The notes: generated by a model not told the origin, from the sequence alone. A stretch of 64,000 bases of DNA from Roseibacillus sp. (GCA_051251855.1 JBPOGI010000006.1:64001-128000); one strand, 5' to 3'; shown: positions 10,126 to 56,877, counted from the stretch's first letter. A program made the numbers and translations.

Positions 10126-11783
10126 TGAGAGAAGCGTCGAAGCGTAAACAAAAGCCAGTCTGGGCACTGTGGGCGAATCCGATTTTTCGTCGTTATTGTC
10201 GCTCCCGTCTTAGGCCGAAGGGTCTGGCGGTGATGCTGCTGATGACTTTGATTCTAGCAGGGTTTTTCTTTGGTCTCTTCCGTGCCTTGGCGATGCGCGA
10301 TTTCGATCCCGTTGATGCGGAGCGGGCGGCGTTCATGCCCTTGCTCGTGATTCAAGTGCTGATTCTCTTCTTTCTAGGGACGGGGCAGGTCGCGGGAGGA
10401 ATGACGGCAGAAGGAGACGAGGGGGTGGTCGACTATCAGCGCTTGGCTCCCATGTCTCCCTTGGCAAAGACTCTGGGGTATCTCTTTGGGCTGCCAGTGC
10501 GGGAGTATGTTCTCTTTTTGGCGACCTTACCGTTCACGATTTGGTGTGTCTGGAGAGGACAGATCCCAATAGAAATCGTGGCGCAGCTCTATGGGGTGTT
10601 TTTGTCCTCGGTGATTCTCTATCACCTCACGGGTTTGGTGGCAGGAACGGTGATGAAGAACCGGCGCTGGGCGTTTTTGATTTCGATGGGAACGATTTTC
10701 TTTCTTTATACGGCGGTTCCTCAGCTCGCGAAGTTCGGTCTCGTCTACTTCAAGTATCTCACCATCTATCCCGTCTTTGAGGAGTGTCTTCCGCACTTGT
10801 TCCCAGTTGATGCAGGGGCGGCGGTGGAAACTCTCCAAAGGCTCCGGCCACCGGCGCGCTTCTTTAATCTCGATTTTCCGCAGGCCGCTTTCACATTGGT
10901 GTCGCAGGGTGTTTTTTCGCTGGCGGGGATTGTGATGATTTGGAGGCGATGGCGGAGAGATGAATCTCACCTTTTGGGCAAGGTCTGGGCGGTGGCTTTG
11001 TTTGGTTGGGTTCAGCTGGTGTTTTTAGGGAACGCCTTGCCTCTGATTCGTACGGGAGAGCTTTTTCCTTCGAGAAATATCGGGGGGATGTTTGGGCGGA
11101 TGCAGCAGCCGTTGTGGGAGCCCGATGCACGTGAGGCGGTATTGATGGCGGGGGTCTTTGGAGTGGTGACCTTGCTCTTTATGATCATTCTTCTATTAGT
11201 GATTACTCCTGAGTATGAAACCCAAGTGAGGGGCTGGCGCCGTGCACGGAAGTTGGGGCAAAAGAGGTTGCCGCGATTGGGTGATTCGGCTTCGAGCTTT
11301 TGGTGGGCGCTGATGATGATTTTCTTGGGGACGGCTGGTTGGTATCTCTTTACCGAACGCATTATCGAGAGCCGCTGGTTCTTTGGGGAGGTAGGGTTAG
11401 GGAGTGCTTTGGCCTTCGCGCTCCCGCTCGTGATTGGGGGATTGGGTTCTCACGCTCTCTTAGAATGGAAGGGGCGGCGGTTTGCGACCTTGGTATTTAT
11501 TCTAGTGGGGTTGGTTCCGATATTAGTGGGAGTAGTGATGGCGGTGAGTTCGGATTCTCTGCACGTGCCTGCGATTTGGGTGGGGGCTGCTTCGCCTCTG
11601 ACGGGTCCGGTGTTGGCGGCGATTAATGAGGTGACCATCGCGGACTTTCCGCTGGATGTGGAACGAGCCTCACCGTCCGCCTTTTGGTTCTGGCAGGTGA
11701 TTCTCTTCTTTGTTGTGGTTCGCCTGATGCTTGCGAATCGATTGCAGAAGAGAATGCTACGAGTGGCGAGTGATTCAAGCTAG
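10125..11783 (+). CDS. ABC transporter permease-like membrane protein
   Basis: 552 aa, many TM helices, NPIF.R motif, translationally coupled to the ATPase. Confidence 0.8.
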   Translation: MREASKRKQKPVWALWANPIFRRYCRSRLRPKGLAVMLLMTLILAGFFFGLFRALAMRDFDPVDAERAAFMPLLVIQVLILFFLGTGQVAGGMTAEGDEGVVDYQRLAPMSPLAKTLGYLFGLPVREYVLFLATLPFTIWCVWRGQIPIEIVAQLYGVFLSSVILYHLTGLVAGTVMKNRRWAFLISMGTIFFLYTAVPQLAKFGLVYFKYLTIYPVFEECLPHLFPVDAGAAVETLQRLRPPARFFNLDFPQAAFTLVSQGVFSLAGIVMIWRRWRRDESHLLGKVWAVALFGWVQLVFLGNALPLIRTGELFPSRNIGGMFGRMQQPLWEPDAREAVLMAGVFGVVTLLFMIILLLVITPEYETQVRGWRRARKLGQKRLPRLGDSASSFWWALMMIFLGTAGWYLFTERIIESRWFFGEVGLGSALAFALPLVIGGLGSHALLEWKGRRFATLVFILVGLVPILVGVVMAVSSDSLHVPAIWVGAASPLTGPVLAAINEVTIADFPLDVERASPSAFWFWQVILFFVVVRLMLANRLQKRMLRVASDSS

Positions 11784-11810
11784 TGGCAGCTTTGTGCAAG
11801 GAATAGCTCG

Positions 11811-14800
11811 CTAAGGAACCTGTTTTACATGAGCTCGAAGGAACTGTGTGGGATTTGTCTCTTTGGAATTCGGGAAGCGGTAGACTTCGACAAGCTTGCC
11901 GGTGGAAGAGCTTGAGAAGCTACCGAGAAGCCTGGCTGGGGTCCATGGGGGTCGCAGGTTGGGGCTGGTCTCCATCGTGAACTCGATGTCATCGAGGCCC
12001 TTCACTCGTTCGCAGATCACGGTCAAATATTCGGCGCCTCCGGAGGTGGTTTGTCCAAAGGACATACAAAAACTGCTTTGGGAAGTAGGGTCCGATCCTA
12101 AGCTATACTCGAGGAGATTGGGCAGGTTGTCGCCATCGAAGTCAGCGGTTCCGACGGTATCGTTGAGTGAGTAAATTTCCTGCCAAGCGAGGTAGGAAGG
12201 GGTCTCCTCGGCTCCTGGTAAGCCGCCATCGTTGGTGCTGGCTCTCCAGCTCGAAGGGAGTCCATGGTTGGGATTGTTTTCGGGCGAGACGAGCACTAGC
12301 GCGGGTCCAGAGCCATCGGTGACACTGGGCCAGGGTTCGGCATCATCATAAGTAAAGTCTTTGATGGCGATACCATCGCGATCAAGGAGGGTGATTTGCT
12401 CACCGCCGTTACTTAAAGCCCCACTGTAAGAGCCTGCGATAAGCGAGGTTGAGACGCTTGGGAAAACTGCGGCAAAGTCGGCTTCGTCTCGGACCAAGAG
12501 ACAACGCTCACCGGGTTCTAACAGATATCCTTCGGGGAAATCGAAAGTGAAAATAATACCGTCAGTGAACTGGCAGCCATCGAGGTTGACTCGTTGATTG
12601 GATATGTTCAGGAGCTCCAGATACTCTCCTGATGTAGGGGAGGGCTCATCGATGGGGTGATAGTGAATCTTTGAGATCACGATGTTTGCTAGGGAGGCGG
12701 GGGTGGCCGCGACGATGTAGGTCGCCTCTGTGATCGCGCTCCATTCCGAAGTTGAGTTCTGGTAAGCACGGGCTCTGATGGTAGAGCTTTCGGAGAGAGT
12801 GACAGTAATGGGGGCCGCTCCAGTGAGAGCGGTGAAGGAGGTTCCTCCGCCAATGGCGCGAGGGTCGGTTCCGTCGGTGGTGTAGTAGATGGTGGCACCG
12901 CTATTGCTTTGAGTGATGGTTAGGGCGTGTGCGGCTGGAACGTCGCCTCCCGTTGGACCTGAGAAGAGGGGAGCGGTGAGGGTGGCCGCGAGGGGTTTCG
13001 GGCCCTCATCTTCGTAACCTTGCAATTGTTGCGTGACCAGAAGTTCACGGCTCTGGTCGGGCCAAAGCGTCTCACCTTGTGGCTTGGGGCCTCCAGTGAG
13101 AATGAAGGATAGGACTTCGGCCTTACCGATATTGAGCCAAGTATCTTTGTTGAGATCGTCGTCACCCCATCGTGCGGCTTCGGCATGGATGATGGGATCA
13201 ACTTGAGCCGCGAGGTCGTTGATGCGGGCGACCGAGGCAGACTCGGAGAGGGGGCCGTTGTTGAAAAAGCTCTTCTGCACGCGGTCCATGAAGCGCATGC
13301 GATATTCGGCGCTGTAGGCGAGGGCTTCGTGAAGGTGTTGGGGGTTGAAGCGGTCGAATTTGTGGCGCCTACGATAGGATCCATCTGACCAAGTTTGGCC
13401 CCAATTGTTTCCGTTAGAGTTGGGGTTGCTCCAAGGTCCGACTCGATTGTAGGTCTTGTCGCTCGTTCCCATGCTGTGCTCGTTATCGTGAGCGAAGAAG
13501 AGGAATCCTCGTTCGCCGTCTTTGCGACGGACTCCGAACCAGTTGTTGGTGCCACTTTTGGTGAAGGTGGAAATGGGGCCGTCATGGCCTCCGGTGTAGA
13601 AGAGGTTGAGGATGTAGTCCGCGAGATTATCGACATTCAATAGGACAGGATAGTTGGGGTTACGGCTACCGTCGGGGTTTAATCCTCTCATTTGAAAGTA
13701 GATTGCGGTGCGCTCGGCCTCGGTGGGCTCGGCGGTGATCGCGAGAGTGAGATCGAAGAGTTGTTTCCAAGCGATGTCGTTGCCATCACTGACTTCCATT
13801 TGGAAAAAGCCGCTACTCCCCGAGCTCTTCACGGTATCGTAGTCGTTGTCATCTCCTCCAAATTGATTGGCTGCATAGTCTGCCTCTGTTCTTTCTTGCC
13901 AGTTGAAAATTCCCCAATAGAGGCCGTTGATGTAGAGGTGGAAGTAGCTGCCTCTGCTGTAAGGCTGTCCCTGATCTCCTTGCGCTTTGCGGGCGAACTG
14001 TTCTCGGATGAGGGAGTTCTCATCATCTCTTGCCCGGCTCCAAGAGTGGTTCTGTTCGCAGCGCATATCGATTTGGTCGAAGCGGGTGACGTTTCCTTCC
14101 GATCCAAAGAGAGGATGAATGAGGTCGCCGTCGTAGAGAGAACGGAAGTAGAGATGAAAGGCGTGTTTGGGGTTGGTGGGATCACGGCTGTCTCCGCCTC
14201 GGATACGGATTCCGCAGTCCTTTTGCACGGCGCTCGTGCCATCGGTATTGATGATTTCAAGGGAAGATTCGCGCTCCCAGAATCGGCCTTTCTGTTCTGG
14301 GTTGGAGTAGATTCCTTTCGTGAAATCGTGGAAGTCGGCGGGAGCCAAGTTCATGCAAACCGAGGGAGCCGACTCGAGAGCGGATTTCAGGTCGTTTAAA
14401 TTTCCTCCTCCAGCGGTGACGTTATCGAGGTCGAGGCCGTATTCATAAACCTGACCATTCACTGGGGCTGAGGGCCAACCACGAGAAGTAGCGTAGGAAG
14501 TGTCCTGATTGACGATGTCGTCCACAAAGAGGTAACTGTGCGTCACGGGCTTTGATGTTCTGTAACCAGCGAGAACGGCGGCTGCGCGGAGGGTGGTGGT
14601 CGAATTGATGATTAGGGGAGAGGTGTAGATTTCACCGTGCCCTGCGCTCGGTTCGCTGCCATCCAGAGTGTATCGGATTTCTGCCAAAGGGTTGGGTGAA
14701 GAGAGGGTGAGGCTAAAGGGGCTGTCGTAGCGACCGCGTGGGGTACTGAAGGTCACTTTTTTGAGAAAGTCGGTGTAGCTTATTGCATTGGGTGCCCCGG

Positions 14801-48779: not shown

Positions 48780-49975
48780 AAGATGATGTTTCGGTCAAGA
48801 AAGACTTAACTTCACAGATAAGTGAAGGCAGGGAATTCATGTGCTCATTTTCAGGCCCAAAAGGCTTGTTGGAAGATGTGCCAAAGGAAACATCGAAAGG
48901 TCCGCCGAGAAATCCCCGCGGCCACGGTTCGAGAGAACGGTGACGGTGTTTGTTCCTAGAAAATGAATGGAACAAGGACATTCCTGTCCTTGTTCTATTT
49001 TGGAAGGAGCAGGCCTTTGTGGTTTGCTCCTCTCCAAATCGAAGTTCTCTGGAGTTGGAGCACGTCTTACGTTGAGGCGTCGCATGCTCATGCTCACAGA
49101 GGATTTCGATTTGGAGTTATCTGAATGGCGGTCTGGCGTCATGAGATAGGCGTGTCGAAAGGCACGTAAAGGGGCAGCAACCCTGTCTGCCCGCCTTCTT
49201 CCCTTTGGGGAGAAGGACAACCAGACAAACCTAGTTCCAATGACTTCGCGGCCGGCAGCTGCGGAGTGATGCTGGAAGATGGGAGATGCTCCATTGCGGA
49301 CGGCAAGTGCTCAAGCAATGGTGGGTGTAGCAACCCACAGAGTCTTTACGCCAAACATCGACAGTTGAGAACGAAGGGGAGTCACCGAGTGCGAAGCTTA
49401 GCGGCCAAGAGCCCGGTGGCAGTCCAGTGGTGCGGGAAAGGAGACGAGTCTTTCAAACTCGAAACCTCTCCCTAGTCGCGAAGACCGTAACGTCTGTAGC
49501 AACGGACGGGACAAGAGGCGTGTGGAATTTTGTTGTTGAAAAGGCAACGGACCCACCGGACGCACGCGTCTCATAGAAGGGTATCGGATAGTACGAGAGG
49601 AAATCCACCAGACTTTAGATCTGTTCCAAACGCAAAGATGCGTCCTTGATTGTGTGAAAATGGCTTAAGCCCTGACCAAATTTTGGAATCAGGGTCTGAC
49701 GGGACTCGCAAGGTCCCCGAGGATTGATGGAATGCCGCACGGTGGAGTAGCTCTCCTTCATGGCCCAGCCGGGTCGACGGTAGGTTGAACATCGAGAAGC
49801 ACAGTCAGAAGGGAGTGCCGCCACTTCCTCACCAAAGGCAGTCAGGTAGGAATACAAAGGGTGGGCCTCTAGCGCCCTCCTTTGTGGAAGACTTGGGAAG
49901 GTGAGCCGTCGCTGGCTCGCGATAATCCAAGGCGAGTTCCTATGTGCGAGGGTGTCCTTCTCAACCCTTGCTATC
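48780..49975 (+). ncRNA. Large structured ncRNA, GOLLD-like (5' boundary uncertain)
   Basis: No credible CDS; many hairpins (48966-48999, 49006-49030, 49032-49116, 49151-49166, 49670-49694, 49701-49717, 49854-49885); 3' hairpin 49946-49971 whose loop TTCTCA complements TGAGAA 49366-49371; directly upstream of a tRNA array. Confidence 0.7.
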
Positions 49976-49991
49976 TATTTTCTAACAATGT

Positions 49992-50067
49992 GGGAGCGCA
50001 TGTGCCAGAGGGGCGATGCTGCCTTGCAAGCAGCGTGTGGCGGGTGCAAGTCCCGTCACCTCCACCA
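49992..50067 (+). tRNA. tRNA-Ala(UGC), two acceptor mismatches
   Basis: GCTGC-cttgcaa-GCAGC; G3:U70; T-loop TGCAAGT; CCA. Confidence 0.8.
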
Positions 50068-50075
50068 ATTTTTCT

Positions 50076-50151
50076 AGCGGGGAGAGTGTTGGTATCTCAA
50101 GAGGGTCTCATACGCCCTCGTCCGTGGGTTCGATTCCCACCTCCGCAACCA
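50076..50151 (+). tRNA. tRNA-Met(CAU), initiator-like
   Basis: AGGGT-ctcatac-GCCCT; A1:A72 mismatch; ...CGCAACCA. Confidence 0.8.
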
Positions 50152-50160
50152 TTTCTAAGG

Positions 50161-50234
50161 GGCGCGCAAACATTATGGTGATGTGCCTGACCTCCAATCA
50201 GGAAAACGGAGTTCGAGTCTCCGGCGTGCTACCA
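50161..50234 (+). tRNA. tRNA-Gly(UCC), atypical (C33, A73)
   Basis: CCTGA-cctccaa-TCAGG; TTCGAGT; CCA. Confidence 0.7.
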
Positions 50235-50244
50235 ATTTTTCAAA

Positions 50245-50318
50245 GGTCCATTGATGTAAAAGTAGCCTCCCTGTCTGTCGAACAGGTTGAGCCGGAGCAT
50301 TACCGGCATGGACCGCCA
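50245..50318 (+). tRNA. tRNA-Asp(GUC)
   Basis: GGTCCAT/ATGGACC, G73; CCTGT-ctgtcga-ACAGG; T-loop AGCATTA; CCA. Confidence 0.82.
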
Positions 50319-50327
50319 TTTTCAAGT

Positions 50328-50404
50328 GGGGACCATGGTGTAACGAGTAAGCATCCGGCACTGTGAACGCCGCGGAATGGGTGCAAGTCCCATTGGTCCC
50401 CCCA
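50328..50404 (+). tRNA. tRNA-His(GUG)
   Basis: G-1:C73; loop ctgtgaa; T-loop TGCAAGT; CCA. Confidence 0.88.
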
Positions 50405-50415
50405 ACTTTTGGAAA

Positions 50416-50491
50416 TGTCCTCGACGGAGCTAGTGAACCGGACGGTTTGCAAAACCGATCATGCGGGGGGCGGAACCCCGGAGGACATCCA
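50416..50491 (+). tRNA. tRNA-Cys(GCA)
   Basis: TGTCCTC/GAGGACA, U73; loop ttgcaaa; T-loop GGCGGAA; CCA. Confidence 0.78.
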
Positions 50492-50502
50492 TCTTTCTAA
50501 AT

Positions 50503-50575
50503 TCCAGCGTGGCGGAAAATCGCGCCGCTCTTGTAAAGCGGATGATGCAGGCAACCAGTCCTGTCGCTGGATCCA
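50503..50575 (+). tRNA. tRNA-Thr(UGU), aberrant T-loop
   Basis: TCCAGCG/CGCTGGA; CCGCT-cttgtaa-AGCGG; T-loop CAACCAGT; CCA. Confidence 0.72.
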
Positions 50576-50585
50576 ATTTGACAAT

Positions 50586-50660
50586 TCTTCTGTCGTCCAA
50601 AGGCGAGGACACCAGGCTACGAACCTGGAGATGCGAGTTCGAGTCTCGCCGGAAGTACCA
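50586..50660 (+). tRNA. tRNA-Arg(ACG)
   Basis: CCAGG-ctacgaa-CCTGG; TTCGAGT; CCA. Confidence 0.88.
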
Positions 50661-50673
50661 TTCTCATGAGAAC

Positions 50674-50747
50674 GCGGGCTTGGTGTAAAAGAAGCACATC
50701 TGTTTTACATGCAGATCGAGGGGGTGCGATACCTCCAGCCCGTACCA
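50674..50747 (+). tRNA. tRNA-Val(UAC)
   Basis: GCGGGCT/AGCCCGT; loop tttacat; T-loop TGCGATA; CCA. Confidence 0.82.
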
Positions 50748-50753
50748 ACTTTC

Positions 50754-50841
50754 ACGAAGTGTTCCCACCACGGTCTTCTAAGCCGTCGACGATAAACTGT
50801 GGGCAGGATGTCGAGGGGTTCGAGTCCTCCACTTCGTTCCA
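50754..50841 (+). tRNA. tRNA-Arg(UCU)-like, no D-arm, expanded variable region
   Basis: ACGAAGT/ACTTCGT; ACGGT-cttctaa-GCCGT; TTCGAGT; CCA; only 9 nt between acceptor and anticodon stems. Confidence 0.7.
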
Positions 50842-50846
50842 TTTTT

Positions 50847-50919
50847 GCCTGCGTAGCCCAACGGAAGAGGCGCCCGGCTTAGAACCGGTTCAGTGTGGGT
50901 TCGACTCCCTCCGCAGGTA
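50847..50919 (+). tRNA. tRNA-Leu(UAG), short variable loop, no encoded CCA
   Basis: GCCTGCG/CGCAGGT, A73; loop cttagaa; TTCGACT. Confidence 0.85.
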
Positions 50920-50928
50920 CTTTTCTAA

Positions 50929-51002
50929 TTCCATGTAGCCCAACTGGTAGAGGCTCTCGACTTAAGATCGAGCAAGTGTCAGTTCGACTCTGACCATGGA
51001 AA
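50929..51002 (+). tRNA. tRNA-Leu(UAA), short variable loop, no encoded CCA
   Basis: TTCCATG/CATGGAA, A73; CTCGA-cttaaga-TCGAG; TTCGACT. Confidence 0.85.
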
Positions 51003-51008
51003 TTTTCA

Positions 51009-51095
51009 GGAGTTCGAACCGGACAAGCGAGCCGGTCGCGTTTGCTAAACGCTGAGTTGCCATTTGGTAAAGGGGTGCAAGTCCTCCGAGCTCCG
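51009..51095 (+). tRNA. tRNA-Ser(GCU)
   Basis: GGAGTTC/GAGCTCC, G73; loop ttgctaa; long variable arm; T-loop TGCAAGT; followed by CCG. Confidence 0.82.
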
Positions 51096-51105
51096 CCGTT
51101 TTTTA

Positions 51106-51193
51106 GGAGGGTGCCGCTAAGTGGCTGGCAACTGGTCTTGAAAACCAGGGTAGGCATTGCGTCCTAGGGGTTCGATTCCTCCACCCTCCGCCA
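51106..51193 (+). tRNA. tRNA-Ser(UGA)
   Basis: GGAGGGT/ACCCTCC, G73; CTGGT-cttgaaa-ACCAG; long variable arm; CCA. Confidence 0.9.
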
Positions 51194-51196
51194 ATC

Positions 51197-51271
51197 ATCC
51201 CAGTCGTCTAATTGGTAAGACGCCCCGCGCCGAGCGGGGAGATGCCGCTTCGAAGTCGGCCGGGGAATCCC
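51197..51271 (+). tRNA. Degenerate tRNA-like gene (nominal anticodon CCG)
   Basis: Intact D-arm GTCT/AGAC; CCCCG-cgccgag-CGGGG with G33; two acceptor mismatches; ends TCCC. Confidence 0.55.
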
Positions 51272-51277
51272 TTTTCT

Positions 51278-51352
51278 GGGTCTGTAGCTCAATTGGTAGA
51301 GCAACCGGTTTTTACCCGGTCGATGCGGGTTCGAGACCCGACAGACCCACCA
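51278..51352 (+). tRNA. tRNA-Lys(UUU)
   Basis: GGGTCTG/CAGACCC; ACCGG-tttttac-CCGGT; CCA. Confidence 0.9.
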
Positions 51353-51361
51353 ATTTTCAAC

Positions 51362-51517
51362 GCTCCTGTCAGCTATGGGTAGGCTTTCGCACTTTCACTG
51401 CGGCAAACCGGGTTCGAATGCATTTCTTGGTTACAAGACATTCTGAACATCCAGCTCGGGGCGAGCTGCATACCGCATGGACCTGAAGGATGAAGGTCAA
51501 TCCCGGCAGGAGTACCA
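51362..51517 (+). tRNA. tRNA-Glu(UUC) with 82-nt T-loop insertion
   Basis: GCTCCTG/CAGGAGT-A-CCA; loop ctttcac; T-stem CCGGG (51408-51412) and CCCGG (51502-51506) separated by TTCGAAT plus 82 nt. Confidence 0.85.
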
Positions 51518-51524
51518 ATTTTCT

Positions 51525-51599
51525 CGGGGGGTAGTTCAATGGGAGAACGCGCGCTTTGGAAGCGTGAGGTTGTCGGTTTGAGTCCGGCTCCCCCGACCA
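51525..51599 (+). tRNA. tRNA-Pro(UGG)
   Basis: CGGGGGG/TCCCCCG-A-CCA; loop tttggaa. Confidence 0.9.
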
Positions 51600-51607
51600 C
51601 TTTTAAT

Positions 51608-51768
51608 TCCCGGATAGCTTAATCGGCAGAGCACTCGACTTTGACTCGAGCAGTGTGGGTTCGATTGCCCTCGCTCCGCTCATGCCATGCGATGTCCAGT
51701 TTCCTCCTCCGGAAACTGAGAAATTCGATGCGCATAAATGTGCGGAAGCATTCCCACTCCGGGCACCA
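51608..51768 (+). tRNA. tRNA-Gln(UUG) with 86-nt T-loop insertion
   Basis: TCCCGGA/TCCGGGC-A-CCA; CTCGA-ctttgac-TCGAG; T-stem GTGGG (51655-51659) and CCCAC (51753-51757) separated by TTCGATT plus 86 nt. Confidence 0.85.
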
Positions 51769-51789
51769 ATTTTAACCAAACATGAAACA

Positions 51790-52383
51790 ATGATAACACT
51801 AGTAAAAGCGAAAGACCTTCGCCCCATCTTGGAGACGGAACGTCTTCTCTTGCGTCCCCTTGAAATGAACGATGCTGCCGACGTGCGTCGCCTAGTCGGT
51901 GATATTCGTGTGGCCGAAAATCTAGGGCTTGTTCCGCATCCCTATCCAGAGGGACTGGCGGAAGAATGGATTTCTGGTCAGAGAGCAGAATATGAAGCGG
52001 GTAGGCATCTCACTTTTGCGATTACTACCAAAGCAACTAACGAACTGATGGGAGTAATCAGCCTTCATCCCAAAGAAGATCTTCTTCGCGCGTCAGTTGG
52101 TTACTGGGTTGGCGTTCCCTATTGGGGAAACGGCTACACCACGGAGGCTCTCAAGGAGATGCTCCGATTTGGCTTTGACGACTTTGCCCTGCAAAGAATC
52201 TTCGCTACTCACTTTGTCACCAATCCTGCTTCGGGCCGGGTGATGGAGAAAGTGGGGATGCAGCTCGAAGGCGTGATGAAGCTGGGTATCTCAAGATTTG
52301 GGGTGCTGCGCGACAGTATGCAGCGAGCGATCATCAAACCCGATTGGGAACGCCAGCGACAGGCGGAAGAACTTTACTGCTAG
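51790..52383 (+). CDS. RimJ/RimL-family GNAT N-acetyltransferase
   Basis: LETERLLLRP, VGYW, YWGNGYTTEA, NPASGRVMEKVGM. Confidence 0.92.
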   Translation: MITLVKAKDLRPILETERLLLRPLEMNDAADVRRLVGDIRVAENLGLVPHPYPEGLAEEWISGQRAEYEAGRHLTFAITTKATNELMGVISLHPKEDLLRASVGYWVGVPYWGNGYTTEALKEMLRFGFDDFALQRIFATHFVTNPASGRVMEKVGMQLEGVMKLGISRFGVLRDSMQRAIIKPDWERQRQAEELYC

Positions 52384-52455
52384 ACCGTGTCGTGTGTGAA
52401 AGCGGCGGGTGGGCACTTTGCCAGCCCACTCGCCGCAAACCCATTTAACTTACCA

Positions 52456-53220
52456 ATGAATAAAAATAGAAATGAGCAGAGGCGTTTGAAATCAGAACGT
52501 CTGGAAACGCGAGACAAAGTGATTCTTGCCCTTGAACGAGAGCGCCGAGATTTGTGGAACCAGCTCCGGAAAGCTCCTTTGGAAGAACTGAAGGAGCCTT
52601 ATCAAAAAGGCTGGGAGCGGTTCTTTGTTCTCAGCGAGCAGGCGAAGCGGAGAAAGGATGCCGAGAAGCTAGAATTGGCCCTTTCCCTTATTCGGAATTA
52701 TCAGCGCTGTTCCGTGAATCCATTTCGACACTATCGCTACAAGAGCAAGCGCATGGTGCCATGGGAGCACAATTTGAGTGGATTAAGAGCGAGAGCTTTT
52801 CTATCTCAACGGACTTCCGAGGAGGTCATGCAATACTTTCGAGTGCGTCTGCGTGAGCCTTTGACTCGAGAGCGAGTTCGAGAATTGGTTCGTTCAGGTT
52901 GGCAGGGAAAATTTTGGTTCCGCTACCCTGAGTATGCGGTTTCTCAAGTGCAGCCATTTATGATCACACACTGCCGCGTAGCTTTGCCCGAGGTGGAGAG
53001 CCGCTTGTCTGAAGTAGAGGCGACCCTTCGAAAAGATGGTAACGAATATCGGCTTCGCCATCTCAAGGATTGGGGCTTTAGCTGTTGGCGTCGGATGGAT
53101 GAAAGGGCTCAAGAAATGAAGGAGGTGCCGCTGATTCGGAGAGAGATTGAAGAAGCGATCTTTGACTTCGAAAGTAAGCAGGAGCCTAGCTACTGGTGTC
53201 CCGTTCTTTTTCTCAATTGA
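52456..53220 (+). CDS. Basic (Arg/Lys-rich) hypothetical protein
   Basis: ATG 52456; PYQKGWERFFVL motif; co-oriented within the unit. Confidence 0.75.
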   Translation: MNKNRNEQRRLKSERLETRDKVILALERERRDLWNQLRKAPLEELKEPYQKGWERFFVLSEQAKRRKDAEKLELALSLIRNYQRCSVNPFRHYRYKSKRMVPWEHNLSGLRARAFLSQRTSEEVMQYFRVRLREPLTRERVRELVRSGWQGKFWFRYPEYAVSQVQPFMITHCRVALPEVESRLSEVEATLRKDGNEYRLRHLKDWGFSCWRRMDERAQEMKEVPLIRREIEEAIFDFESKQEPSYWCPVLFLN

Positions 53221-53542
53221 AGGAGAACGCGACGTCAGTGGCTGCGCTGTGAGTTGCAATACCACGCTTTAAACTAGGAACAAACACCAGGGGATTTCGG
53301 CGGAGCTTTCGATGGGTTCTTTGACTCTGAAACGAGCAGTAGAAAACCCAAGAAATGCAGAAGAGAGCAGCATCAGTGAGAAGAAGAATCCGGCATTTAC
53401 TGGAGAAGAAAGAGAAGCAGAAAAAGAAGATTCAACCCGAGTCTCCCCGCGAGAAAACCGACTATGAACAATCGCCAGTGAATCAAATCACGGTGAGGAC
53501 GATAGAGGGTTTTTGGGGACAGCAATAAGAAGAGAAAAAGAG

Positions 53543-54142
53543 ATGAACACCGTAATGAATAAGAGCGTCGTGCTCGTGCTAAACAGGCACTGGCAAGCCG
53601 TCAATGTCACCACCCCCGCGGAGGCCTTTGCTTCCATGATGACCGATGCCGCGACAGGCTTGGATATTCGAGGGGAAGACTGGATGGTTCCGGTGAAGTG
53701 GCAGGATTGGGTCCAGTTGTCTGTTCGAGAAGGAGACTTCTCGGTAGGGACGGTGGACGGTCAGGTGCGCGTTCCGACGGTGATTGTCTTGAGTCGTTTT
53801 GACCGAGTGCCGCGCAAGCGCCTCAGTTTCTCTTTGCGTGGTCTTTGGCTGCGGGATGGGGGACGGTGTCAATATACCGGACGTTCTCTCCGGCCAGAGG
53901 AAGGCAATATCGACCACGTCATTCCTCGCTCGCGCGGGGGAGAGACTTCTTGGGAGAACTGCGTGCTTTCTGACCGCAAGGTGAACAACCGGAAAGCAGA
54001 CCGGACCCCGGAAGAAGCGGGCTTACGCCTGAATTCCGATCCGGTGCGTCCTCCGGAAGTGCCCGTCACCTATTTGCTGCGGAATCCGTTCCAAATTGCA
54101 GATTGGGAGGTCTTCCTCCCTGAACGCTCGGAAGAAAATTGA
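53543..54142 (+). CDS. HNH endonuclease
   Basis: VLVLN; RDGGRCQY; IDHVIPRSRGG.TSWEN; N.RKADRTPEEAG. Confidence 0.92.
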   Translation: MNTVMNKSVVLVLNRHWQAVNVTTPAEAFASMMTDAATGLDIRGEDWMVPVKWQDWVQLSVREGDFSVGTVDGQVRVPTVIVLSRFDRVPRKRLSFSLRGLWLRDGGRCQYTGRSLRPEEGNIDHVIPRSRGGETSWENCVLSDRKVNNRKADRTPEEAGLRLNSDPVRPPEVPVTYLLRNPFQIADWEVFLPERSEEN

Positions 54143-54224: not shown

Positions 54225-54290
54225 TCTGAAGTAGCTCAGATGGTAGAGCAACGAACTCATAATTCGTCGGTCACGGGTTCGATCCCCGTC
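54225..54290 (+). pseudogene. tRNA(CAU) fragment lacking the 3' acceptor strand
   Basis: D-arm GCTC/GAGC, ACGAA-ctcataa-TTCGT, ACGGG-TTCGATC-CCCGT, then CTAACAAAAC, which does not pair with TCTGAAG. Confidence 0.7.
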
Positions 54291-54299
54291 TAACAAAAC

Positions 54300-54437
54300 A
54301 AGCCCCTTTCGCTCCAGATTGCTTCGGCAGTCAGCTCGAACTTGGCCCAGCGAATCACGCCGCTCCTCAGTCCCGAATGTTTCCGGATGAGTGACGCGAT
54401 GATTCCCGCCGGGAAAGAGTGGAGTGGGGGAGGCTTA
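54300..54437 (+). ncRNA. Candidate structured RNA
   Basis: AAGCCCCTTTCGCTCCA pairs with TGGAGTGGGGGGAGGCTT; internal GATTGC-TTCG-GCAGTC hairpin. Confidence 0.45.
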
Positions 54438-54469
54438 CAAATTTAACCCCAAAGAAAGAAAAAGAAGAA

Positions 54470-55237
54470 ATGAATGAATGGATGATCGTAGCAGTGGTTG
54501 TCGCAGTGGCGGCCGCTCTTGGAATGGTGAAAGTGATCCTAGGCAACCGCCAGAAGGTGATCGTGAATAGTTTTGAGAAGGCCCTCATGTTCTACAATGG
54601 CAAGTTGGTGAAAGAGCTGGAAGCGGGTGAGACCGTTTTCTGGGGTCAAGGATACGAAGTGAAACGTGTCGATGGCCGTTGGCAGGAGTTGGTGGTGCAA
54701 AGCCAAGAATTCCTGACCGCCGACCGAGCTTCCGTGAAGGTGAGCGGAGTGGTGCGTTTTCGCGTGGCGGATGCGCTGAAGTATTTCGGCGAATCCCAAG
54801 CGCCTCTCGTGACCGTTCATACCGCGACTCAGATGGCACTGCGTGATGTGGTGGGAAGTCTGGGCGTGGAAGCGGTGCTGGAGCGTCAAGACGGTCTCGG
54901 TGATCGAATGAAGGCTCTGGTTGCGGCCCCAGCGGAAGCTCTTGGAATCGAAGTCAACGCTGTCGTGGCGCGTGACCTGATGCTCGCCGGTGACCTGAAG
55001 AAGGCCTACCAGGCGACTTTGAGCGCGAAACAAGAAGCTCTCGCAGGACTTGAAAAGGCCCGTGGCGAGGCGGCTGCTATACGTGTGAAAGCGAATGCTG
55101 CCCGGGTTTACGAAAAGAACCCTGCCTTGCTGCAACTCGAAGCTCTCGAGACCGTGGCGAAGCTGGGGGACGGAATGAACAACCATCTGGTGCTTGGATC
55201 ACTCGATTCCTTGCTGAAGATGGTGAAAACTGAATGA
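54470..55237 (+). CDS. SPFH/band-7 (slipin-like) protein
   Basis: N-terminal TM; QEFLTAD, LRDVVG, RDLML, LEKARGEAAAIR..ANAA, NPALLQL. Confidence 0.9.
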   Translation: MNEWMIVAVVVAVAAALGMVKVILGNRQKVIVNSFEKALMFYNGKLVKELEAGETVFWGQGYEVKRVDGRWQELVVQSQEFLTADRASVKVSGVVRFRVADALKYFGESQAPLVTVHTATQMALRDVVGSLGVEAVLERQDGLGDRMKALVAAPAEALGIEVNAVVARDLMLAGDLKKAYQATLSAKQEALAGLEKARGEAAAIRVKANAARVYEKNPALLQLEALETVAKLGDGMNNHLVLGSLDSLLKMVKTE

Positions 55238-55302: not shown

Positions 55303-56877
55303 ATGAGCCTGATTGGACAGGAAGAATTAATTGAAGCGGGTTGGGAACCTGGTCCGCACTTTGGAGAGATGATCGTGAAGCTGCGTGAATATGAAGAGCG
55401 TGGTATTTGCGATAAGAAGTATTTGCTCAAGCTGTTAGCGAAGGACTTTGGGGAACCAGAGCCTAAGTTGGCGATGCGTCCTGCGCCGGTGAAGTGCGCG
55501 GAAGCGATTCGTCCCGAGAACGATGAGGAGAAGGAGAATGTGTCGAGAGTTCGTCAGAAGATGAGCGAGCTCTTGAAGGTTCCCGTGATTTCTCAAGGGG
55601 CGGTGATGCCCGATGCGTGTCCGGCGGGAATGCATGAAGCGACCATTCCGGTGGGCGGGGCCATTGCGGTGGAAAATGCGATCATTCCAAGCGCGCATTC
55701 AGCGGATGTTTGCTGCTCCATGTTTGCCTCTTTCTACGTGGAACGCAGTAGTGTCGCCAGCGAGCTGGATGCTTTGACGGCGGCGACTCGTTTCGGTCCC
55801 GGTGGTCGTCACTATGACCACTTGGTGGAGCATACCGTGAATGAGGAAGACTTTTGGTCGAATCCGTTTTTGAGCGGGTTGAAGGACTACGGACGCATTC
55901 ACATGGCTGACCAAGGGGACGGGAATCACTTTGCCTACTTGGGTGAAGTCGAGGTGACCTCTGATGTTGTGAGCAAGCTGCACTTGGCTGGATATGGCGC
56001 GCTTGCGGATCAGCTTTCGGGTTCTGGAGAGAATCAAGAGACGCTGCGTCTTCGCGTTCTGGTGACTCATCATGGGTCGCGAGGATTGGGAGCGCATCTC
56101 TATAAGCGAGGTCAAAAGGCGGCTTTGAAGCAAACCGACAAGGCAGCGCGAGGGGTTCCTTCGGCAGCGGCGTGGTTGGATGCGCGCAGTGATGACGGCC
56201 GTGCTTATTGGGAGGCTTTGCAATATGTGGGTCTTTGGACTCGTGCCAACCACGAGGCTATCCATGAGCGTTTCTTGAACAACATCGGAGCGGAAAAGCT
56301 GGCGAGCTTTGGCAATGAACATAACTTCGTGTGGAAGCGTGGGGATGTCTTCATGCATGGCAAGGGAGCGACTCCAGCTTGGAAAGACTCCGATGGGCGT
56401 CCGCTGTTAGGATTGATTCCGCTCAATATGGCGGAGCCGATTCTGATGGTGCTGGGCGGCGACCAGAGCGAGTTCCTTTCCTTTGCTCCTCACGGTGCCG
56501 GCCGAAATGTTTCCCGAACCAAGTTGCGTGGTCGTTACGGCGACGAGGCCACTCGTCAGAATGTGATTGCGCATCATACCCGGGACATCGACGTGCGCTG
56601 GTATTGTGGTAAGGCGGACCTGAGCGAAACTCCGGTGGCCTACAAAAATGCCGACCAGGTGAAGGCGCAGATTCAGGAATTCGGCCTCGCGGAAATCGTG
56701 GCTGAGATTCGTCCTCTGGGATGCATCATGGCCGGCGAGAGCCCTCGGATGGATTGGAAGAAGTATCGCAAGGAGCAGTTAAGTCCGAAGCAGAAGCGTC
56801 AGATTCAGCATCGTGCGGAGCGACGTAAGACCAAGCAAGGTCTCGGGAATTGGGACGAGCCCGATTCCTTAGATTGA
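55303..56877 (+). CDS. rtcB: RtcB-family RNA ligase
   Basis: MPDAC, ADVCCS, GDGNHF, HHGSRG, HNF, KGATP, HGAGR, ETP.AYK. Confidence 0.93.
   Translation: MSLIGQEELIEAGWEPGPHFGEMIVKLREYEERGICDKKYLLKLLAKDFGEPEPKLAMRPAPVKCAEAIRPENDEEKENVSRVRQKMSELLKVPVISQGAVMPDACPAGMHEATIPVGGAIAVENAIIPSAHSADVCCSMFASFYVERSSVASELDALTAATRFGPGGRHYDHLVEHTVNEEDFWSNPFLSGLKDYGRIHMADQGDGNHFAYLGEVEVTSDVVSKLHLAGYGALADQLSGSGENQETLRLRVLVTHHGSRGLGAHLYKRGQKAALKQTDKAARGVPSAAAWLDARSDDGRAYWEALQYVGLWTRANHEAIHERFLNNIGAEKLASFGNEHNFVWKRGDVFMHGKGATPAWKDSDGRPLLGLIPLNMAEPILMVLGGDQSEFLSFAPHGAGRNVSRTKLRGRYGDEATRQNVIAHHTRDIDVRWYCGKADLSETPVAYKNADQVKAQIQEFGLAEIVAEIRPLGCIMAGESPRMDWKKYRKEQLSPKQKRQIQHRAERRKTKQGLGNWDEPDSLD

Follow-up and report, generated by a model that had tools for sequence, protein, structure and literature searches.

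A conserved D-armless tRNA-Arg(UCU) gene with a predicted pseudoknotted core in bacterial tRNA arrays and phages

To our knowledge, the textbooks give the cloverleaf as the fold of all known bacterial transfer RNAs (tRNAs). A 2024 abstract likewise states that all known bacterial tRNAs have it (PMC11551756). Here we analyze a gene of another shape, which lies in a 64,000-nucleotide stretch of Roseibacillus sp. DNA (GCA_051251855.1 JBPOGI010000006.1:64001-128000; "the window", in whose numbering positions are given unless a locus or contig is named). The gene, a tRNA-Arg(UCU) unit of 88 nt with an encoded CCA, occupies 50754-50841 on the plus strand of a dense tRNA array and has no local D stem-loop between its acceptor and anticodon stems, so that it is not a canonical cloverleaf. 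We found that the gene is conserved, that both of its long-range helices covary, that all anticodons of its homologues are arginine anticodons, and that it fills the UCU slot of the tRNA sets in which it occurs. It looks like a tRNA shape that has not yet been described for bacteria.

D-armless tRNAs are typical of mitochondria and not of bacteria. Those of animal mitochondria include human mt-tRNA-Ser(GCU) and Ascaris mt-tRNA-Ser(UCU) (PMC9427863, PMC7609411), and the available sections of a review of non-canonical tRNAs treat the loss of the D arm for mitochondria only (PMC7609411). As far as these sources describe it, the human molecule is the nearest mechanical parallel to our unit. Both the mitochondrial D-armless tRNAs and the Roseibacillus unit lack the D hairpin, and in both the anticodon helix is lengthened by pairing of the 5' connector with nucleotides that follow the anticodon stem. 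However, our unit is of bacterial and phage origin (a 4.96-Mb bacterial genome and phage genomes), and it draws the partner strand from the loop of a long variable arm that is closed by a stem, creating a pseudoknot. With 8 acceptor pairs, 4 T-stem pairs (8/4) and 88 nt it is not shrunken as mitochondrial tRNAs are, and its canonical T-loop, which is remodelled in D-armless mitochondrial tRNAs, and its GG(A) motif probably retain the elbow, whereas the accessible account of the human mitochondrial tRNA gives it no tertiary core.

A second comparison is with the 8/4 and 9/3 allo-tRNAs and irregular tRNA polycistrons of Mukai et al. (2017), all of which have D stem-loops in the text available (PMC5389517). 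Allo-tRNAs and (8/4) tRNA-Ser/His share with our unit the 12-bp acceptor branch divided 8/4, the long variable region and the similarity to the tRNA-Sec model, and allo-tRNAs, like our unit, are found in the tRNA clusters of phages and in irregular-tRNA polycistrons. As that paper presents them, allo-tRNAs have a long D stem capped by a tetraloop and an extended anticodon stem, while our unit has no D hairpin and an anticodon stem of 5 bp. The sole allo-tRNA(UCU) in its supplementary table is a 9/3 molecule with a D arm, and the word "pseudoknot" is absent from the main text and supplement as accessible (PMC5389517).

The surrounding array resembles the long tRNA arrays (L-arrays) such as the trn operon of Anabaena sp. 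PCC 7120, with many packed same-strand tRNA genes and HNH and rtcB neighbors (PMC8421152). In the consulted part of their paper, Santamaria-Gomez et al. (2021) list Verrucomicrobia among seven phyla with L-arrays, report induction under translational stress, and found 23 of 26 tRNAs of the Anabaena array aminoacylated; that text does not describe D-armless tRNAs, and "D-arm" occurs 0 times in its main text (PMC8421152). By analogy, the window array is probably a stress-induced spare tRNA set. According to the abstract of Edelmann et al. (2024), an engineered "mini HisT" lacking the D arm can be used by HisRS, EF-Tu and the ribosome of E. coli (PMC11551756); it is a synthetic simple deletion with nothing to rebuild the D-stem, unlike our unit. 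A search of the openly accessible literature returned no description of a bacterial or phage tRNA with the fold reported below.

Architecture and covariation of the D-armless gene

The unit lies 6 nt from tRNA-Val (end 50747) and 5 nt from tRNA-Leu (start 50847). Its boundaries and spacers agree with those of the neighboring array tRNAs, and a script for perfect 7-bp closures with NCCA, run across the array, recovered it at exactly these ends. By script, ACGAAGT (50754-50760) and ACTTCGT (50831-50837) form 7 of 7 pairs and are followed by T and CCA. The first-pass annotation, made from the sequence alone, had described this perfect acceptor stem, the CCA, the anticodon arm, the short segment GTTCCCACC in place of a D arm (50761-50769), and a 27-nt variable region closed by CGAC/GTCG whose GTGGG is complementary to CCCAC; all of these were found again where it had placed them (Table 1). 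In most homologues the linker between acceptor and anticodon stem is 8 nt. The same annotation had called the T arm normal, which had to be revised: A50814 is unable to pair with C50830, and G50761 pairs with it instead, so the acceptor/T branch is divided 8 + 4 and not 7 + 5, with a T stem of 4 bp on an 8-bp acceptor. Across 57 sequences, element position 8:77 is G-C in 55, while 61:77 is pairable in just 8.

Covariation was assessed in alignment A8, which holds 52 distinct homologues aligned to a covariance model and whose pair counts lean towards the structure. The D-like helix formed by element positions 11-15 and 46-50 is paired in 98.5% of cells, and four of its five pairs are altered on both sides (Table 1). 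Homologue covariation of CCCAC/GTGGG was the check proposed for the idea that the variable arm rebuilds the D-stem, and it came out in favor of that idea. In the core of the variable-arm stem, GAC/GUC is replaced by GGC/GCC or AGC/GCU, and phage copies show AGC/GCU and AGU/ACU; the AGU/ACU of the copy in Aeromonas phage Aszh-1 was read by eye, its cells having been entered as gaps in A8. The outer pairs 38:56 (15 of 33 lettered cells) and 34:60 were dropped from the claimed core. Since the variable-arm stem crosses the D-like helix, the two together make a pseudoknot. The acceptor stem is paired in 98.3% of cells, with compensatory changes at all 8 pairs. For the whole structure, 97.0% of cells are paired, compared with 78.5% after column shuffles and 42-51% with slid partners; on any measure 0 of 500 shuffles matched the observed value, a count that is not a probability, as the sequences are related and many were retrieved by a structure-aware model.

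The same helix picture appears in an ungapped MAFFT alignment of 12 sequences that was not fitted to the structure. RNAalifold, run unguided on a MAFFT alignment, returned four helices: acceptor (8 bp), 11-15:46-50, anticodon and T (4 bp). The most divergent D-like helices, CACGA/TCGTG and CCTTC/GAAGG, came from a metagenome scan that was blind to both strands, its pattern consisting only of the anticodon arm, GAC and GGTTC. Taken together, the comparative evidence supports a D-stem that would be rebuilt by pairing of the 5' linker with the variable-arm loop, as the first-pass annotation had proposed.

The standard finders do not report the gene. ARAGORN made no call at the unit in bacterial, low-threshold, mitochondrial or intron mode, the Rfam tRNA model RF00005 gave no match there even at E values up to 10, and the same model at E <= 0.001 did not match the D-armless copies in the five phage records searched. 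Its best Rfam match is tRNA-Sec (RF01852), at 25.5 bits against a gathering score of 47, in which 16 D-arm model positions are replaced by 5 nt. An identity as tRNA-Sec is ruled out by the anticodon, UCU and not UCA, together with the sub-threshold score. The reading as an intron-containing tRNA was set aside after the ARAGORN intron mode found nothing, and that of the anticodon arm as an insertion into a D-loop because it would leave no anticodon arm. Like a canonical bacterial tRNA, the unit has an acceptor stem, a 7-nt anticodon loop, a UUCRANY-type T-loop and a 3' CCA.

The 52 homologues are spread over Verrucomicrobial arrays, metagenomes, complete genomes of uncultured phages, and phages of Vibrio, Aeromonas and Salmonella that are in culture; their lengths are confined to 85-90 nt, and mean column identity is 80% (18-sequence alignment A1). 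The window genome (4.96 Mb, 13 contigs) holds one copy, which covariance model R1 scores at 106.4 bits, and the next best matches there are ordinary tRNAs at no more than 25.9 bits. A blastn search in 60 relatives gave 3 full-length homologues. Model R1 matched 11 of 151 genomes of the order and 2 of 151 of the phylum, the window genome being included in each count (the other phylum match, at 30.7 bits, is weak and was not counted as a member), and 31 of 134 genomes in one sister family. The genome_contigs scan with pattern CGGNNTTCTAAGCCGNNGAC, which was too loose and brought up mostly ordinary archaeal tRNA-Arg or coding DNA, yielded at least 7 further copies with the fold among at least 119 loci, in Verrucomicrobiales, Verrucomicrobiota or uncultured Roseibacillus records. 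The metagenome scan gave 67 loci, 12 of them with the fold. In viral contigs, a pattern from the anticodon arm, GAC and GGTTC gave the fold in 3 of 5 loci, two of them in phage genomes that are complete and have terminal repeats (145 and 343 kb), and a UAU version of the pattern gave 6 loci, with the fold in none by eye.

Thirteen GenBank phage records were matched by blastn: Vibrio phages Va1, TDDLMA, SRILMA, pv27, phiTY18, phiKT1024, 1.084.O and VCPH, Salmonella phage Arash, Aeromonas phages AhSzw-1 (two records) and Aszh-1, and an oyster-associated phage. The phage copies score 65-95 bits with R1. None of the 13 records (two of them without any annotation) annotates an RNA gene at the site, and in pv27 two tiny hypothetical coding sequences overlap it. 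A blastn search of the plasmid collection with the element found no match. As a minor correction to the first-pass annotation, the fold is not confined to bacteria, as phages carry it too. In three carrier phage genomes, L253 (at about 2569), L327 (Arash) and L329 (AhSzw-1), ARAGORN also reports amber-reading CUA tRNAs, which it labels "Pyl".

Proposed core, decoding role and rival explanations

The covarying helices point to the following arrangement. The 8-bp acceptor stem would be stacked on the 4-bp T stem; the anticodon arm is normal, a D hairpin is absent, and the 5-bp D-like helix CCCAC/GUGGG would stack on the anticodon stem. Its 5' strand, one nucleotide from the 5' strand of the anticodon stem, would occupy the place of canonical positions 22-25, while its 3' strand, extending the anticodon-stem 3' strand after an 8-nt linker, would occupy that of positions 10-13. 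In effect, the 5' strand of the D-stem and the D-loop would have moved to the 3' side of the anticodon arm, where they would sit within a variable-arm loop resembling that of class II tRNAs. The linker between the pseudoknot stem and the D-like 3' strand is 8 nt in 46 of the 52 homologues and 59% A, and may engage in base triples. The segment after the D-like helix reads GGA in 36 homologues, AGA in 9, GGC in 6 and otherwise in 1; CAGGAU in the window copy resembles the D-loop of the genome's canonical tRNA-Arg(UCU), AGCUGGAUA, which contains GGAU. Among 57 sequences, which represent only two or three clades, every GG is accompanied by a UUC T-loop and every AG by an NGC T-loop, and this co-occurrence fits a contact like G18-U55 and G19-C56. 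It seems that GGA probably stands in for G18, G19 and A20 and contacts the canonical T-loop to build the elbow, and its A possibly supplies the A20 contact for arginyl-tRNA synthetase (ArgRS).

We consider it probable that the unit is a functional, structurally non-canonical tRNA-Arg and the AGA decoder of its array. Its RNA would be cut from the array transcript like its neighbors, which we propose because the CCA is encoded, then charged with arginine and used on the ribosome; processing, charging and decoding are predicted here from sequence comparison. Among the 52 homologues the anticodon is UCU in 50, UCG in 1 and CCU in 1, all arginine anticodons. U33, A37 and A38 are invariant in the anticodon loop (18 sequences of A1), the anticodon arm resembles that of the genome's canonical tRNA-Arg(UCU), and 42 of the 52 genes encode CCA. 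ARAGORN found no canonical Arg(UCU) in the array of the window, nor in 41 of 42 homologue loci (flanks up to about ±1.5 kb). The exception, L223, has a D-armless gene with UCG and a canonical Arg(UCU) directly after it, and Aeromonas phage AhSzw-1 carries CCU and UCU D-armless copies in tandem. In five cultured phage genomes every region matched by RF00005 was run through ARAGORN; Arg(ACG) is the only canonical Arg tRNA in Va1 (23 tRNAs), Arash (25), AhSzw-1 (34) and VCPH (20). The choice between AGA decoder and mimic, left standing in the first-pass annotation, leans to a decoder because the anticodons are arginine throughout and the gene complements the other tRNAs of arrays and phages.

Several observations weigh against this reading or against the fold behind it, besides the relatedness of the sequences noted above. 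Folded singly, the sequence has a z-score of -0.23, and 72 of 200 shuffles fold as well or better, so the sequence by itself does not show the complementarity to be meaningful; CCCAC/GTGGG stands above chance because the homologues covary. The D-like helix has four mismatched cells, L004, L221 and L253 being among the copies concerned, and the variable-arm stem comes to three solid pairs, its outer pair 34:60 forming in 34 of 52. The acceptor stems of L004 and L191 are degenerate and lack CCA, and these two copies are probably decaying; altogether 10 of the 52 genes are without CCA. The discriminator base is U in 20, G in 17 and A in 15, and U73, as in the window copy, is unusual for tRNA-Arg. 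The proposed stand-in for A20 is C in 6 of 52. Aszh-1 (8 tRNAs) has a canonical Arg(UCU) in addition to the D-armless gene, and the window genome has one at G000:C7:298258-298334, so that with this housekeeping copy the D-armless gene is unnecessary for viability.

The canonical copy would suit a tRNA mimic or decoy, made and folded but unused in translation, which might serve as a sponge for toxins or defense nucleases or as a processing or regulatory signal of the array. The RNA repair ligase RtcB and Ro60-like TROVE proteins adjoin the arrays, and the unusual shape might block normal use. In the available text, the long-array authors suggested array tRNAs as sponges for toxin RNases (PMC8421152), and some irregular tRNAs of Mukai et al. 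were charged but unused in translation, or inactive (PMC5389517). A decoy, however, needs no intact U33, no purine at 37, no arginine anticodon in 52 of 52 homologues and no switching within the Arg set only; nor would it be expected as the sole UCU unit of near-complete phage tRNA sets. In addition, EF-Tu and synthetases require just such a 12-bp acceptor/T branch with CCA, and it is conserved here. These observations make a decoy unlikely in our view.

Charging with another amino acid, such as serine through the long variable arm as proposed for allo-tRNAs, would have the unit recode or mistranslate AGA. It is the 8/4 branch with a long variable region, as in allo-tRNAs, and the tRNA-Sec match that bring this to mind, and U73 or G73 with a long variable arm indicates seryl identity in the account of Mukai et al. 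(PMC5389517), the window copy having U73. Yet the variable stem has 3-4 pairs and its loop is engaged in the D-like helix, which leaves no free long arm; the discriminator is not conserved, and anticodon variation stays inside the Arg set. The sister family with GUA anticodons (below) retains A73. That base fits cognate charging, given the identity of E. coli TyrRS, and we regard charging with an amino acid other than arginine as quite improbable.

That the unit is a decaying pseudogene with coincidental CCCAC/GTGGG complementarity, as the shuffle-like single-sequence fold (z -0.23), the rejection by tRNA finders and a few degenerate-looking relatives (L004, L191) might suggest, is hardly credible given 52 distinct homologues from bacteria and from phage families unrelated to one another, compensatory changes in each of the helices, anticodon and T loops that are invariant or nearly so, a length held to 85-90 nt, and a divergence (mean column identity 80%) that rules out recent copies of one sequence.

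Sister families and the array setting

The fold recurs with other anticodons. The model also picked up a family of 12 genes with GUA (Tyr) anticodons in the same arrays, all with the 8/4 pseudoknotted D-armless fold. Their D-like helix is 6-7 bp; in a plain MAFFT alignment, with the helix taken as 7 bp, 92.9% of its cells are paired and 4 pairs differ on both sides. The pseudoknot stem is CGUC/GACG, A73 is invariant (12 of 12), and the T-loops are the non-standard AGCGUUA or UGCGAUU. No canonical Tyr tRNA was found in the part of the locus covered at any of the 8 GUA loci with ARAGORN output, and in the arrays with a canonical Tyr (L002, L004, L086) no D-armless Tyr was seen. One copy with a CCA (Trp) anticodon has the fold (L003:2103-2191, minus strand), as does an odd copy whose anticodon loop is oversized (8-9 nt) and contains UGU (L058:2672-2760, minus strand). 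Across families, pair 36:58 is A-U, G-C or U-A. From these comparisons, the D-armless Arg gene is best read as belonging to a broader class of tRNAs of this kind, found in phages as well as in bacterial arrays. The metagenome loci L160, L163, L167, L185 and L190 (at about position 401) hold a UCU tRNA with a normal D arm and a long, stem-forming variable arm, which is a different, class-II-like tRNA with an Arg anticodon.

On the window array, ARAGORN called 10 units in bacterial mode; an eleventh appeared once thresholds were lowered, and a further five in mitochondrial mode only (Table 1). Much of the array does not conform to the usual tRNA pattern. By eye, the T-loop of the Asp unit is non-standard. 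The tRNA-Leu UAG and UAA genes (50847-50920 and 50929-51002, plus strand), at 74 nt, are without the long variable arm of bacterial tRNA-Leu. The unit at 51362-51517 (plus strand, 156 nt) combines a perfect acceptor stem of 7 bp with A73 and CCA. By eye, its anticodon loop is Glu-like (UUC) and about 95 nt are inserted between the T-loop and the 3' strand of the T-stem; the unit may be a tRNA gene with an interruption or a further non-canonical form. A promoter and terminator scan of 49200-52000 returned two promoter-like and four terminator-like sites, not above shuffles and none usefully placed.

A lone partial tRNA match (54230-54291, plus strand; Rfam tRNA, 50.9 bits, model positions 6-65) lies 2.5 kb downstream of the array, between the HNH and SPFH genes. 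Beside the arrays of six other genomes we found HNH genes in 4 of 6, SPFH genes in 4 of 6, TROVE (Ro60-like) genes in 2 and ThiF-family genes in 2. Ro60-like proteins lie directly beside arrays at L265 (7268-8848, minus strand), L266 (12089-13588, plus strand), L263 (11571-13352) and L264 (11006-12796), the L264 protein having a weak VWA match and the L263 protein no Pfam match, and these arrays are also accompanied by proteins of the ThiF family and by an unknown protein, conserved and about 275 aa long. This neighborhood suggests an RNA quality-control or repair island. At L267 (G406:C16), an array that carries the D-armless gene has an EF-Tu gene inside it, between tRNA-Glu and tRNA-Met (10915-12099, plus strand; 394 aa, with all three EF-Tu domains).

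Table 1. Features of the window and of the D-armless genes (L, locus; pair rows use element positions and give counts in A8)
Feature	Position	Strand	Remarks
tRNA array	49998-51681	+	Same strand, about 20 units, spacers of 5-12 nt (ARAGORN and script)
Ala UGC unit	49998-50067	+	ARAGORN, mitochondrial mode only
Asp GUC unit	50245-50318	+	ARAGORN, mitochondrial mode only
Cys GCA unit	50415-50490	+	ARAGORN, mitochondrial mode only
Thr UGU unit	50503-50575	+	ARAGORN, mitochondrial mode only
Gln UUG unit	51610-51681	+	ARAGORN, mitochondrial mode only
Acceptor stem, 5' strand	50754-50761	+	8 nt; G8 (G50761) pairs with C77 (C50830)
Segment between 7-bp acceptor and anticodon stem	50761-50769	+	Only GTTCCCACC; 9 nt, or 8 nt counting G8 as paired
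D-like helix, 5' strand	50764-50768	+	CCCAC; element positions 11-15; via C16 into anticodon stem
Anticodon arm	50770-50786	+	ACGGT/GCCGT, 5-bp stem; loop CTTCTAA; anticodon TCT at 50777-50779
Variable region	50787-50813	+	27 nt, closed by CGAC/GTCG
Variable-arm (pseudoknot) stem, 5' strand	50787-50790	+	CGAC; core GAC at 50788-50790, covaries with 50810-50812
A-rich linker	50791-50798	+	GATAAACT, 8 nt, between pseudoknot stem and D-like helix 3' strand
D-like helix, 3' strand	50799-50803	+	GTGGG; element positions 46-50; complementary to CCCAC
D-loop-like segment	50804-50809	+	CAGGAT; GGA at 50806-50808
Variable-arm (pseudoknot) stem, 3' strand	50810-50813	+	GTCG; covariation
T arm	50815-50829	+	4-bp stem GGGG/CCTC; canonical loop TTCGAGT
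Acceptor 3' strand and 3' end	50830-50841	+	3' strand 50830-50837; discriminator T 50838; CCA 50839-50841
D-like helix pair	11:50		C-G in all
D-like helix pair	12:49		C-G 49, A-U 3
D-like helix pair	13:48		C-G 45, U-A 4, other 3
D-like helix pair	14:47		A-U 23, G-C 14, U-A 8, C-G 4, G-U 2, other 1
D-like helix pair	15:46		C-G 46, A-U 4, U-A 2
Variable-arm stem core pair	35:59		G-C 46, A-U 5
Variable-arm stem core pair	36:58		A-U 37, G-C 14
Variable-arm stem core pair	37:57		C-G 51
GNAT acetyltransferase	51784-52383	+	Downstream of array
Unknown protein	52387-53220	+	Downstream of array
HNH endonuclease	53513-54142	+	Downstream of array
SPFH/Band 7 protein	54419-55237	+	Downstream of array
RtcB RNA ligase	55303-56877	+	Downstream of array
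GUA (Tyr) copies	L232:90-179, L248:1501-1589, L235:152-240, L249:1501-1590, L227:1501-1590, L250:1501-1590, L218:318-407, L241:2973-3063, L237:2473-2562, L221:2951-3039, L240:2915-3003, L239:2879-2967		8/4 pseudoknotted D-armless fold

Meaning for phage and array tRNA sets

The D-armless Arg gene would be a conserved exception to the bacterial cloverleaf, another solution to the L shape kept by selection in at least 52 distinct genes. Because the finders miss these genes, phage and array tRNA sets seem to be without an AGA decoder although they probably have one, and the missed genes affect inferences on codon usage and host range that rely on the tRNA content of phages. The gene is present in cultured phages of Vibrio, Aeromonas and Salmonella, which makes direct tests feasible. 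The fold also offers a natural scaffold for asking what RNase P, synthetases, EF-Tu and the ribosome need of a tRNA core, with a possible use in building orthogonal tRNAs.

As a wider and tentative conjecture, which we would not put above a possibility, the 8/4 tRNAs that lack a D hairpin and take a permuted D-stem and D-loop from a variable-arm pseudoknot (at least Arg UCU/UCG/CCU and Tyr GUA, and probably Trp CCA) may form a rewired-core class in active translation by phages of Proteobacteria and by stress-induced arrays, the fold being kept, perhaps, for evading tRNA-targeting nucleases or modification-dependent checks on the D arm. If this is true, the rewired-core tRNAs would be damage-proof spares.

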